A DNA stretch of 64,000 nucleotides from assembly GCA_963842885.1 (NCBI GenBank), contig CAWJIE010000005.1:192001-256000 (forward strand), in the 5' to 3' direction. This document shows, in pieces, positions 1,729 to 52,575 of this stretch. The notes beneath the pieces are model-generated. The model was given only the letters and a program-made list of their open reading frames with translations. It did no database searches and was not told where the DNA came from. Position 1 is the stretch's first letter. The number at the start of each line of letters is the position of its first letter. A program made the translations under genes and the position numbers. Source of the stretch: an uncultured Nitrososphaerota archaeon. GTDB lineage: Archaea > Thermoproteota > Nitrososphaeria > Conexivisphaerales > DTJL01.

Positions 1729-2024
1729 ATGAAGGACTACGGCAAGCAGAGTCTTCTGGCTGGACTACTTCGACTCAGCGCTGAGCAGGGAATCCGGAAG
1801 GAGGGTGAGCCTCCCCCTGGCCACGAGGAGCCCGACGGTGGAGGAGCTGGCAGCGGCGGCAAGGATCCTCGGCTACGAGCCGCACGTCGAGAAGGCACGG
1901 CATCCCGCCAGGCCCACCAAGCCCTCCGGCTACATCCAGGTGGAGAAGAAGGACGAGCAAGAAGGAGGCGCTGCTCGCCCTTGCCAAGGCCTTGGCCGAA
2001 GGCAGGGCCCAGCAGAAACGCTGA
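1729..2024 (+). CDS. srp19: Signal recognition particle protein SRP19 (several frameshifts, likely sequence errors)
   Basis: Pieces in different frames join to MKDY..VFWLDYFDSALSRESGRRVSLPLATRSPTVEELAAAARILG...HPARPTKPSGYIQV..KKEALLALAKAL. Its position after rps8e is conserved. Confidence 0.85.
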
Positions 2025-2074
2025 CCTGACCGAGGGCAAGCTTAATACGGCGCACGCCCGCACCTTCGTCCGTT

Positions 2075-2299
2075 TTGCAGGAGATTGGGACCATCATTCG
2101 CAGGGCTCGCAGCGGCATGGTCATCGTCAGGCTGGCTAAGGAGCCCCACGAGGGACAGGTCCTGTTCGATTCCAAAGGGCGCTCGGTCGGCCGGGTTACC
2201 GAAATCTTCGGACCGGTGAAGGGCGCGTACGCTTCCCTCCTGCCACACACGGACAGGATCGAAGGTCTGGTGGGGGAGAAGGTGTTCTCCAGGAATTGA
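2075..2299 (+). CDS. gar1: H/ACA RNP protein Gar1/Naf1
   Basis: VGRVTEIFGPVKGAYAS motif, 74 aa, immediately upstream of tfb. Confidence 0.88.
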   Translation: MQEIGTIIRRARSGMVIVRLAKEPHEGQVLFDSKGRSVGRVTEIFGPVKGAYASLLPHTDRIEGLVGEKVFSRN

Positions 2300-3480
2300 A
2301 GCCGAGGTTCGAAAAGGACTCCGAGTCGCAGCCTTCGAAGTGCCCCCAGTGCAACTCGCCCCTCATAGGCGACCGTGCGGCCGGCGAAGTCGTGTGCCCG
2401 ACCTGCGGCTACGTCCTACTTGACGAGGTCGAGTTCGAAGGGCCGGAATGGAAGGCCGTAGACCCAGAGGACAAGCTGAAGAAGAGCCGGGTCGGGGCGC
2501 CGCTGACCTACACACTTCACGACTTCGGGCTGACGACGACCATCGACGGTAGCGGCGTCGATTCACACGGCAACAGGATCACGGGGGACGAAAGGGCCAA
2601 GATGGAGCGGATGAAGACCTGGCAGTTCAGGCTGCGCACCATCGACAGCAAGGAGAGGAGCATGTCCAACGTCCTCCAGAAGATCCATGAGATATCGGTG
2701 GGCCTGAACCTCCCAGGGAACGTCTCGGAGACGGCCGCCTACATTTTCAGGCAGTACTCCAAACCCAACTTCTGCCGACGCTGTAAGGAGGAGGTGGAGC
2801 CCGCGGAGGTCCCCGTCTGCCTGGACTGCGGAATAGGGATAGTCAGGAAGTGCCCCCAGTGCGGCGTGAGGGGTTCGTCGGACGAACGGTACTGCAGGTA
2901 CTGCGGGACGTCGGTGAAGAGCAGCTGCGTCAAGTGCGGAAGGGAGTATCCCTCCGAGCCCTTCTGCCCACGTTGCGGCACGCCCCTTCACAGCAGGTCT
3001 CGGGGGAAGCAGGTGGCGGGGGTGGCGTCGGCGGCCATATACTTGGCCTGCAGGAAGTGCGAGGTGAACAGGTCGCTGGCGGAGGTGGCGGAGAGGTCGT
3101 ACCTCGACAAGAAGGTGGTGGCGAAGTACTACCGGCAGATGGTCAAGGAGATGGAGATGAGCAGCGTCCCCATGGCCTCCATCCAGAAGCACATCTCCAA
3201 GCTATTCAACAACCTCAACTCCACGACCAAGATGCCCGAGAAGGTCGAGCGCCTGGCGATCAGCATAGCCACGAAGGCCTCCGGTGCGTCGATGAGCAGC
3301 GGCAGGTCCCCTGCAGGGCTGGCGGCGGCCTTCCTCTACGTCTCGGCGAACCTCCTCAACGAGCACCTCCCCCAGAGGGACGTGGCGGAGGCGGCCGGGA
3401 TAACCGAAGTGACGATCAGGAAGCGCTGCAAGGAGCTCTTCGAGAACTTCAACATCTCGGTCAAGGTCCACGCAGCATAG
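2296..3480 (+). CDS. tfb: Transcription initiation factor IIB with an internal triple zinc-ribbon insertion
   Basis: N-terminal Zn ribbon CPQC..CPTC, B-reader GPEWK..SRVGAP..HDFGLTT, and two cyclin repeats (AAIYLACR; GRSPAGLAAAFLY..VAEAAGITEVTIRKR). A Cys-rich insert lies at about 2761-2997. Confidence 0.95.
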   Translation: MKPRFEKDSESQPSKCPQCNSPLIGDRAAGEVVCPTCGYVLLDEVEFEGPEWKAVDPEDKLKKSRVGAPLTYTLHDFGLTTTIDGSGVDSHGNRITGDERAKMERMKTWQFRLRTIDSKERSMSNVLQKIHEISVGLNLPGNVSETAAYIFRQYSKPNFCRRCKEEVEPAEVPVCLDCGIGIVRKCPQCGVRGSSDERYCRYCGTSVKSSCVKCGREYPSEPFCPRCGTPLHSRSRGKQVAGVASAAIYLACRKCEVNRSLAEVAERSYLDKKVVAKYYRQMVKEMEMSSVPMASIQKHISKLFNNLNSTTKMPEKVERLAISIATKASGASMSSGRSPAGLAAAFLYVSANLLNEHLPQRDVAEAAGITEVTIRKRCKELFENFNISVKVHAA

Positions 3481-3560
3481 GCTATGGTCATATTCAGAAA
3501 GAGCTTTTAGGAGGGAAAACGCTCAGAGACTTCGTTACAACCAACCGGAGGGATTGTGCC

Positions 3561-3944
3561 TTGCAAGAAGCAGATGAAGACCTAATCAGCAAAGTGTATC
3601 GTCTCGTCATAGAGAACGGCGAATCTGGGATCCTGCAGAGCGAGCTCTGGAAGGTGCTCGGTCTGACCAGCAGGGACGGCTCGAGGATAGCTTCCAGGCT
3701 TGAGAAGAGGCGTCTCATCAAGAGGGAGAAGGTCCTTGAGAGGGGAAGGTGGACGTACAAGCTCCTCCCCCTGGTCATCCCCATCGACACGAGCAGCATC
3801 GAGGAGGCTCCATGCATCCGGTGCCCTGACGAGGAGAGATGCTTCGTGGACGGAGAGGTGAGCCCCCTCACATGCCTGAAGATCGAGAACTGGTACAACC
3901 TGGAGTACCAGGTGAGACACGGCGATGCGCCCGCTTCAAGCTAA
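3561..3944 (+). CDS. TFE beta / RPC34-like winged-helix + Fe-S cluster protein
   Basis: GILQSELWKVLGLTSRDGSRIASRLEKRRLIKREK winged helix plus a C-terminal CIRC-x5-C-x11-C. It is next to tfb/gar1 as known for cren/thaumarchaeal RPC34 homologues. TTG start inside ORF 2850-3944. Confidence 0.85.
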   Translation: MQEADEDLISKVYRLVIENGESGILQSELWKVLGLTSRDGSRIASRLEKRRLIKREKVLERGRWTYKLLPLVIPIDTSSIEEAPCIRCPDEERCFVDGEVSPLTCLKIENWYNLEYQVRHGDAPASS

Positions 3945-51555: not shown

Positions 51556-52575
51556 CTAGAGGCCGACGCTGTTCACGACGATGCCGCTGTTGCCATCGAT
51601 GACCAGGACGATCTTCGAGCCCTTGTGGTCGTAGCGCGCGAACCATATGGGCGCGTGAAGGAGCTCCCCGTCGGCAACGTCCATCTCGGTGTTCATCTGC
51701 TGAATCATGTGGTACTGCTTGTGAGCCTTCTGCGACTGCAGCTGGTCCACCATGGTCTTCGCCTGGTACTTCGCCATGTCCTCGCTTATGTCCCCGTTGA
51801 GGATCTTGATGCCGACTCCCCTAGCCAGCTTGTCCACGTCAAATATCTCCCTCTCCGTCAGGTTGAACTGGTAGTCAGTGGGCTGGTACTGGGTGAACGC
51901 CTTGATGGCGACAACGGGGAAGTCATAGTTCTCATTCAGCGTGAAGGTCTTCCTCATGTTCATCCCGCCTCCGGCACCTCCCATCATCGTTCCAAGCATG
52001 GCGCCCTCCATGAGCCCGCCGCCGCCGAAACCACCACGCCGCCCGCCCATCCCTCCGGCCATAACTCCGAACAGGGCTGCTTCGGTGGCAATGGTCCCGA
52101 CCGTGGCGACTGTGTCGGCGGCCGTGATGGAGGTCCTGGCCGACACGGGGACGAGCCAGTATGGGACGTAGCTTAGGGTGAGCTCCTCTTGGGTCGAGTT
52201 CTCCTCAAGGTGGCGGTGAAGGAGACCCTTGTCCATTAGATCCTTTAGCTTCTCTGCCACTACGTCCTGGCTCTGCAGCTTCAGAGGCAGCATCGTCTGC
52301 TTCATGAGGCTCCTCCACCCCGCGTCCCCCAAGGAGATGCTGGAGCCGCAGTAGTCGCACGTTATCACCATCTCTCCGAAGAGGGGCTTGATGGGGGCCC
52401 CGCAGGTGGGGCATTTGAGCTCGGAGACGCCGGCCGGGGCTACCGTCTCAACGGCCTGTGCAGCGTTGCCAGGGGCCTGAGACCCGCCTTCGGCGGGAGC
52501 CTGGACGGTGGCGCCGCACTTGGAGCAGAAACGGGCGTCGTCGGGCAGCTGCGTACCGCATTTGAGACAATACAA
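51556..52575 (-). CDS. Zinc-ribbon domain protein with a Gly/Met-rich insertion
   Basis: CLKC..CSKC, CPTC..CDYC, YVPYW, HAPIWFARY..IDGNSG. Confidence 0.8.
   Translation of the reverse strand: MYCLKCGTQLPDDARFCSKCGATVQAPAEGGSQAPGNAAQAVETVAPAGVSELKCPTCGAPIKPLFGEMVITCDYCGSSISLGDAGWRSLMKQTMLPLKLQSQDVVAEKLKDLMDKGLLHRHLEENSTQEELTLSYVPYWLVPVSARTSITAADTVATVGTIATEAALFGVMAGGMGGRRGGFGGGGLMEGAMLGTMMGGAGGGMNMRKTFTLNENYDFPVVAIKAFTQYQPTDYQFNLTEREIFDVDKLARGVGIKILNGDISEDMAKYQAKTMVDQLQSQKAHKQYHMIQQMNTEMDVADGELLHAPIWFARYDHKGSKIVLVIDGNSGIVVNSVGL

Follow-up and report, generated by a model that had tools for sequence, protein, structure and literature searches.

A genus-restricted insertion of three zinc-ribbon units within the first cyclin repeat of a gar1-linked archaeal TFB

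Introduction

The core of the general transcription factor TFB, like that of its eukaryotic counterpart TFIIB, ranks, in terms of architecture, among the most conserved of archaeal and eukaryotic proteins; such diversification as is known within the family has come about through paralogy, terminal extension and truncation, plus a single helical insertion, found in Rrn7 of the RNA polymerase I (Pol I) system. Here, we describe a TFB gene found in a 64,000-nucleotide (nt) stretch of DNA (‘the window’; positions 192,001 to 256,000 of the forward strand of contig CAWJIE010000005.1, GenBank assembly GCA_963842885.1) from an uncultured Nitrososphaerota archaeon of the order Conexivisphaerales. The encoded protein has the same ribbon, B-reader region, pair of five-helix repeats and helix-turn-helix (HTH) as the canonical archaeal TFB core (Pyrococcus woesei TFBc; PDB: 1AIS/1D3U) and eukaryotic TFIIB, but carries a feature that both of these lack: 75 amino acids (aa), arranged as three zinc-ribbon units, located between helices 2 and 3 of the first cyclin repeat.

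A large lineage-specific insertion in a cyclin fold, serving as a contact surface, has been described for the Pol I TFIIB-like factor Rrn7/TAF1B, where five ‘insertion helices’ are reported to contact Rrn11 (PMC5489313). That insertion is eukaryotic, helical, and lies between helices H3 and H4 of the C-terminal cyclin fold, whereas the module considered here is predicted to be β-rich and lies between H2 and H3 of the N-terminal repeat. Cysteine chemistry also has a precedent within the family: in Brf2, the vertebrate TFIIB-related factor of Pol III, redox sensing through C361 (human numbering) at the interface of DNA and TBP is reported to regulate complex assembly (PMC4671959). Brf2 is reported to sense via a single exposed cysteine at the DNA interface and not by way of a zinc site (PMC4671959); here, in contrast, there are 12 cysteines in three presumed structural zinc sites. 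The units themselves follow the same CxxC-x(9-11)-CxxC pattern as the arrays collected under the Pfam families DZR and Zn_Ribbon_1, but those are free-standing or terminal, in unrelated architectures.

With respect to genomic setting, the closest described system is TFB2 of Sulfolobus. A recent preprint describes TFB2 as encoded in a gar1-tfb2 operon and driving division-phase transcription, its degradation dependent on its C-terminal cyclin fold, with TFB1 serving most housekeeping genes; throughout the Thermoproteota, the synteny between TFB2 and gar1 is conserved, and TFB2 probably represents the ancestral copy (10.64898/2026.09.06.749720). The TFB described here is similar in its gar1-tfb(-tfeβ) synteny and in being the more divergent paralogue alongside more canonical copies; it differs in that Sulfolobus-type TFB2 has no zinc-ribbon insert (open reading frames, ORFs, of 298–321 aa), and in that divergence is far lower in the thaumarchaeal copy.

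Results

Extent, motifs and conservation of the insert

The gar1-linked TFB gene (which we term ‘lineage A’; window 2296..3480, + strand) is an ORF of 394 aa, recognised by Pfam (TFIIB, 98.6 bits) and matched by TFB/TFIIB chains in the PDB at the level of both sequence and fold. Aligned with ten insert-free relatives, its extra 75 residues (aa 160–234; 2773..2997, +) form a single gap-free block between ‘...RQYSKPNF’ and ‘SRGKQ...’, with zero flanking residues lost; the point of insertion falls between the second and third helices of cyclin repeat 1. Comparison by phmmer with P. woesei TFBc (1d3u_B) pairs query residues 117–157 with chain residues 4–44, and 235–390 with 47–199, such that 77 residues of the query occupy the place of just two. 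A preliminary description of this DNA, made from the sequence itself, had proposed an in-frame insert within cyclin repeat 1, a proposal borne out both by Pfam and by alignment with insert-free relatives. The block is confirmed too, although its start had been set 12 nt early (2761 rather than 2773) and its length put at about 80 aa rather than 75.

Three consecutive CxxC-x(9-11)-CxxC units make up the block: CRRC...CLDC (unit 1; aa 160–178, 2773..2829, +), CPQC...CRYC (unit 2; aa 186–203, 2851..2904, +) and CVKC...CPRC (unit 3; aa 211–227, 2926..2976, +), the six motifs beginning at aa 160, 175, 186, 200, 211 and 224—precisely the six, in three pairs of the DZR kind, that had been listed at the outset. 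All scores are above the Pfam cut-offs. DZR (PF12773) scores 47.5 bits on the whole protein (cut-off 27.3) and 58.1 bits (E-value 9.9e-16) on an 82-aa piece containing the insert, its best stretch (aa 186–228) corresponding to units 2 and 3; Zn_Ribbon_1 (PF13240) scores 30.8 bits on the whole protein and 41.4 bits on the insert alone (cut-off 25), with its best stretch at aa 185–206, over unit 2; and DZR_2 scores 32.6 bits on the insert alone (cut-off 27). From the motif, we infer that the insert binds zinc, with one ion per CxxC pair. The GC content is 0.60–0.65 both within the insert and on either side of it, and shows no anomaly.

In each of the eight insert sequences collected (see below) the block is 75 aa long and free of indels, with CxxC motifs at insert positions 1, 16, 27, 41, 52 and 65, a recurrence well beyond what chance would give. 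Invariant columns number 36 out of 75, comprising all 12 cysteines—whose conservation in relatives had been left as a point to check—plus 24 of the 63 non-cysteine positions. Conservation peaks in units 2 and 3 (10/18 and 11/17 columns invariant, respectively), which adjoin the R-G-K loop discussed below, and is poor in unit 1, the most variable of the three (6/19). The net charge of the insert ranges from +2 to +7 across the set.

Authenticity

An assembly chimera or a frameshift could in principle generate such an insert and, in the same assembly, the SRP19 gene found 300–550 nt upstream is split in a manner that would indicate local base errors. Set against this, a search of related genomes returned full-length insert-bearing matches in five out of five genomes of the genus, source genome included, and three further protein clusters derived from other assemblies have the same Pfam architecture (97, 84 and 83% identity). 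Metagenome contigs retrieved from Logan also bridge both insert junctions, with no joints reported: X3 record 17 (2000–3697), X1 record 5 (2647–3392), X1 record 6 (2647–3037) and X6 record 21 (2738–3059). These are assembled contigs as opposed to raw reads, and the best-matching run may have some connection with the sample from which the source genome came; X1 record 5, however, differs at 67 positions and thus represents a different strain. The contigs containing the gene come from peat and freshwater metagenomes. Independent contigs spanning both junctions settle the question of chimerism raised in the preliminary description, and together with the genus genomes, the three clusters and the codon-level signature of selection reported below, they rule out an artefact, an explanation to which we attach next to no credence.

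Retention of the TFB core and predicted structure

The N-terminal ribbon, the B-reader and both cyclin repeats had been described as retained, and Pfam, alignments, an AlphaFold2 model and fold comparison all concur. PF00382 matches the cyclin repeats in three stretches (98.6 bits, E-value 2.1e-28, cut-off 23.6), and PF08271 the N-terminal TFIIB-type C4 zinc ribbon (aa 15–54; 2338..2457, +; 38.8 bits, cut-off 29), in which C16, C19, C34 and C37 do not vary among any of the 68 aligned TFBs. Across the same 68, this protein among them, the B-reader/B-linker segment keeps P50, W52, K53, A54, W109, R112 and R114, and the HTH of repeat 2, which serves to recognise the B recognition element (BRE), keeps E371, T373, R375 and R377. 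The NCBIfam TFIIB model NF001658 scores 278.1 bits (E-value 8.1e-83, in two stretches), below its curated naming cut-off of 384; the match is broken in two by the insert, and the lineage is a divergent one, so the protein is filed under the Pfam TFB/TFIIB family instead. Judged by its sequence, it is a member of that family (PF00382 plus PF08271) with ribbon, B-reader segment, two five-helix cyclin repeats and HTH all present, and is predicted to bind TBP–DNA and to recruit RNA polymerase (RNAP).

Our AlphaFold2 model, built with the 68 aligned TFBs, has a mean predicted local distance difference test score (pLDDT) of 73.8. Working along the chain, helices at 118–136 and 141–155 represent helices 1 and 2 of cyclin repeat 1 (aa 118–159; 2647..2772, +; pLDDT blocks of 82–91; 1d3u_B residues 4–44); a β-rich segment follows, and then helices 240–254, 261–268 and 272–285, representing helices 3 to 5 of the same repeat (aa 240–285; 3013..3150, +). 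The second five-helix repeat and C-terminal HTH complete the fold (aa 294–384; 3175..3447, +; PF00382 best stretch aa 298–383), with helices 360–367 and 371–384 forming the HTH. The top Foldseek hits of the model are TFIIB/TFB chains, and VIA-align superposes 198 of the 201 residues of 1d3u_B over model residues 114–391 (Z 16.8, root-mean-square deviation 6.4), with some 80 residues looped out. A second, much smaller insertion is also specific to the insert-bearing clade: four residues (STTK here; aa 309–312, window 3220–3231) in the inter-repeat linker, with no equivalent in the insert-free orthologues.

Within the full-length model the insert is all-β, with ten-residue pLDDT blocks of 71–84 over residues 161–230; modelled in isolation it reaches a pLDDT of 82.4 and a predicted template modelling score of 0.58. 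According to these models, the insert would form a β-rich unit of its own, leaving the cyclin fold intact. A Foldseek search of the PDB with the isolated model gave zero hits at E <= 0.001, the best match being a chain of the PolD large subunit (9f2a_B; E-value 0.033 over 58 columns), and a wide VIA search returned four chains with Z of at least 2 (maximum 2.2). This lack of structural neighbours provides no functional lead, and does not show that the predicted fold is new.

Position beside the DNA-contact loop

The insert ends one residue before a loop formed by R236-G237-K238 (3001..3009, +), the counterpart of K152-G153-R154 in human TFIIB: phmmer places query residue 236 opposite TFIIB residue 152. 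In TFIIB this first-repeat loop is reported to contact the downstream element, BREd, with a G153Q:R154A mutant being defective (PMC4529316); and in P. furiosus TFB1, a probe in cyclin repeat 1 (F192Bpa) is reported to cross-link to the template strand at -20/-19 and to the non-template strand at -16/-17 (PMC13502027). Taken together, the loop alignment and cross-link positions would place the insert close to the DNA downstream of the TATA box.

The reading that we favour, and to which we would give about an even chance, is that a zinc-stabilised module, gained once and selected, sits on the downstream, DNA-proximal side of the gar1-linked TFB, where it adds a contact to DNA or to a partner and sets this paralogue apart from the six insert-free TFBs of the same cell. 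The gar1-linked TFB of this Conexivisphaerales-type thaumarchaeon would be the copy at the ancestral locus—the positional counterpart of Sulfolobus TFB2—and three tandem Cys4 units were introduced into its helix 2–3 loop without loss of any TFB part. In the complex with TBP and DNA the module would project from the downstream side of the TFB core at approximately -20 to -16 from the start site, offering a further surface, of mildly basic character and bearing conserved non-cysteine residues, for contacts with promoter DNA or with a partner (RNAP, TFE or a regulator, for example); the added contact would, in turn, confer a specificity for promoters or partners distinct from that of the other six TFBs. 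The zinc sites are here taken to be structural.

Those sites could also act as a switch, with oxidation or loss of zinc unfolding the module beside the DNA-contact loop and so gating initiation. Twelve invariant cysteines in three predicted metal sites next to that loop would suit such a role, as would the peat and freshwater origin of the carrier contigs, these being redox-variable habitats; Cys4 zinc ribbons are, however, as a rule structural, and a redox partner gene was not seen at the locus. The behaviour of C361 in Brf2 does provide a precedent within the TFIIB family, but the mechanism differs in using a single exposed cysteine (PMC4671959). We consider a switch of this kind improbable. 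The preliminary description had entertained metal/redox sensing, DNA binding and protein docking; nothing in our data favours sensing, which has no support so far.

Origin and distribution

A close donor for the insert was not found within the 11 contigs of the source genome, where the best non-self tblastn hit (E-value 7e-6, 29% identity) reflects essentially the cysteine pattern; DZR/Zn_Ribbon_1 units as such are abundant there, with 31 matches. At the DNA level, a search for traces of insertion (target duplications, internal repeats) yielded just 10–18-nt matches reflecting CxxCG codons. Elsewhere in the window, a 339-aa protein (51556–52575, - strand) begins with DZR-type zinc ribbons at its N-terminus and continues into a Gly/Met-rich segment; it is the second-best DZR match of the genome, and the best non-self tblastn hit to the insert on this contig (E-value 8e-4).

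When the insert was compared by phmmer with 1.84 billion cluster representatives, 702 hits were returned at E <= 0.001, led by the orthologue cluster (E-value 3e-30), with the best non-orthologous match at 3e-15. A local hidden Markov model built from insert-free TFBs detected TFB domains in none of the other 149 among the best 150 of these 702 hits, and the ten top hits that were scanned are mostly generic multi-ribbon arrays. A word-indexed search of a 5.8-billion-protein set with aa 150–245, its sensitivity limited by word matching, gave three hits, each an orthologue cluster, among 23 candidates. In the homologue search that yielded the three further clusters described above, DZR was seen in none of the other 117 homologues listed (277–343 aa).

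For a survey of the class, an insert-free orthologue served as query against 141 genomes, the unpublished G472 included. Among the best 150 of 616 matches the only split match is to a gene of the genus itself (genus g1, genome G003, query 5–159), the remainder being contiguous over approximately query 10–300; as about 20 genomes have weaker best hits outside these 150, a further split TFB is ‘not found among the matches listed’, not ‘absent’. A phylum-wide scan with PF00382 detected TFB in 396 of 401 genomes, but its best 150 of 1955 matches are unsuited to a survey of inserts. Within the survey some TFB matches contain stop codons: the best TFB match in two genomes of a different family (f2) of the same order contains one TAG and one TAA (G009:C116:1871-2767 and G012:C31:2699-3595), and one TAA is present in each of several second TFB matches in family f7; such cases may represent broken genes, read-through of adjacent ORFs, or recoding.

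According to the preliminary description, an insert of this kind is not known from any described TFB or TFIIB. Our searches of the open-access literature (PMC and bioRxiv) likewise found no TFB/TFIIB with a nested zinc-ribbon module, nor, orthologues of this gene aside, did those of the databases described above, where the insert is not widespread. To judge from these searches, a three-zinc-ribbon insert of this sort is a rare alteration of a core transcription factor, and one that has so far gone undescribed.

Gain and selection

All four genomes from the family's three sister genera contain insert-free orthologues, and the gene order S8e-SRP19-Gar1-TFB-TFEβ-like-FtsJ is common to all nine family loci; the insert-bearing gene is therefore the positional orthologue of the insert-free one. 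In a tree calculated without the insert columns, seven insert-bearing sequences are monophyletic (support 97/97), on a stem of 0.22 compared to 0.35 for their insert-free sister clade, arguing for a single gain and against acceleration of the host protein. As read from these sequences, the insert was gained once, in the ancestor of one genus-level clade.

The ratio of non-synonymous to synonymous change (ω; Nei-Gojobori, 10 pairs from five species, synonymous divergence dS 0.7–1.9) averages 0.13 over the insert, or 0.17 without its cysteine codons, versus 0.04 for the rest of the gene; the cysteine codons show synonymous TGC/TGT changes. At the codon level, then, the insert is kept under purifying selection, and among its eight carriers neither loss nor decay was seen.

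Persistence of this sort might also be expected of a tolerated decoration: a promiscuous ribbon array lodged in a surface loop, leaving the function of TFB unchanged, and kept because a half-degraded Cys-rich insert would misfold an essential cyclin repeat. Several observations weigh against our preferred reading of a selected module adding a contact, and some of these would suit a decoration well. Compared with the remainder of the protein, the insert evolves 3–4 times faster, and unit 1 is poorly conserved; a decoration merely tolerated and constrained by its fold would look similar. Outside the insert, TFB shows no change in rate after the gain; DZR-type units are plentiful in the genome, and the insert has its closest relatives in generic arrays from unrelated architectures. 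Further to this, the net charge is just mildly positive, the orientation of the insert toward DNA is argued solely from the position of the loop, just two out of five models of the isolated insert are confident, and the comparison with known structures gives no hint of function. A decoration, however, sits poorly with the 24 invariant non-cysteine positions, with zero indels in eight sequences at a dS of ~1, and with reversion or decay going unseen in any carrier; nor is the site a neutral loop, abutting as it does the conserved R-G-K DNA-contact loop. On balance we judge decoration to be unlikely, though well short of negligible.

Paralogues and the question of housekeeping function

The source genome contains seven TFB and four TBP genes, as compared to two to four TFBs and one TBP in the sister genera. 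Its other six TFBs are of canonical length and form a separate lineage (‘B’), four of them being 86–94% identical to one another and the remaining two 57–64% identical to those four; all six are 32–39% identical to the gar1-linked TFB. Three of the four TBP genes directly adjoin lineage-B TFB genes, all outside the window (genome G000, contig C3, 164197–165728, 171424–173253 and 512238–513930), an arrangement that suggests duplicated TBP–TFB cassettes; two lineage-B TFBs are, in addition, adjacent to each other (C3:434749–437133).

Might the insert, then, reside in the primary housekeeping TFB, with all promoters served through a modified cyclin repeat? The conserved information-processing neighbourhood (S8e, SRP19, Gar1, TFEβ-like, FtsJ and Trm1), the low ω outside the insert, and retention of the gene—the sister genera always keep it, and it is present in nine of nine family genomes searched—are all compatible with this. 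The six other TFBs, however, have the higher Pfam TFIIB-repeat scores (55–79 bits versus 53 and 41 bits for the gar1-linked protein) and, on a joint tree with crenarchaeal sequences, lineage A has the longer stem (0.96 versus 0.48), lineage B sitting nearer to the crenarchaeal TFBs that are not linked to gar1. On the same tree, as regards orthology with TFB2 of the Sulfolobales, the crenarchaeal gar1-linked branches are long (1.3–4.2), with open forks. In each of five crenarchaeal genomes the flanked TFB is the one scoring lower against an insert-free TFB profile, the higher-scoring TFB being unflanked; beside the lower-scoring copy, gar1 was detected in four of five genomes, and phmmer finds a downstream tfeβ homologue in four of five. 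In Sulfolobus, moreover, the gar1-linked TFB2 is the reported division-phase specialist and TFB1 the housekeeping factor (10.64898/2026.09.06.749720).

The label ‘housekeeping-locus TFB’ given in the preliminary description thus fits the neighbourhood, but its implication of a housekeeping TFB is doubtful given the six other TFBs, the identity of the gar1-linked Sulfolobus copy and the divergence of the flanked crenarchaeal one; we think it rather improbable that this is the primary factor. A search of the genome for Snf7/CdvB turned up a single weak match (22.1 bits) below the cut-off; as the Sulfolobus control also falls below it, this carries no information.

The gar1 locus

The assignment of the region as a gar1-tfb-TFE-beta locus holds up in Pfam matches to the neighbours and in synteny across the family, the TFEβ match being a weak one. 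Immediately upstream lies gar1, encoding the H/ACA RNP protein Gar1 (2075..2299, +; PF04410, 32 bits, cut-off 29.3), whose TGA stop overlaps the TTG start of TFB (aaTTGAag at 2294–2301). Downstream is the gene for a TFEβ/Rpc34-like winged-helix protein of 127 aa with a C-terminal cysteine cluster (3561..3944, +), supported by MarR_2 and by a sub-threshold Rpc34 match (20.2 bits, cut-off 28.4); its start appears to be TTG here, and is GTG or ATG in relatives. The protein is 74–95% identical across the nine family genomes, with an invariant C-x2-C-x5-C-x10-C cluster. Pfam also identifies S8e, SRP19, FtsJ and Trm1 around these genes. Prediction of a complex between the TFB core (aa 110–394) and the TFEβ-like protein gave no answer (score 0.01), and counts neither way.

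The SRP19 gene mentioned above (1729–2024, +) is split over three frames, the first giving MKDYGKQ, the second residues 7–74 and the third a C-terminal GRAQQKR; in two genomes of the same genus it is one continuous ORF of 97 aa, and the two apparent frameshifts are either assembly base errors or the mark of a pseudogene. In the spacer between SRP19 and gar1, just before the gar1 start (2067–2069), a run of T is one base shorter in all four aligned metagenome runs, which looks like a difference, or an error, in homopolymer length.

Discussion

Going by the sequences compared here, the feature we describe is a genus-restricted, conserved domain insertion in a core initiation factor, with a function that is putative.

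By analogy with Sulfolobus TFB2, the thaumarchaeal gar1-linked TFB could be a factor specific to the cell cycle or to particular conditions, the insert acting as a zinc/redox-gated or partner-docking switch over the TFB regulon as part of the wider diversification into seven TFBs and four TBPs; we would regard this fuller scenario as a long shot. The insert falls in the gar1-linked paralogue, whose positional counterpart in Sulfolobus was recently shown to drive cell-cycle transcription.

Whilst the organism is uncultured, the insert-free orthologues of the sister genera offer a ready control for biochemistry. A selected metal-binding module nested within cyclin repeat 1, beside the loop by which DNA is read downstream of the TATA box, would amount to a natural experiment, and would show a route to new promoter or partner specificity in a general factor.

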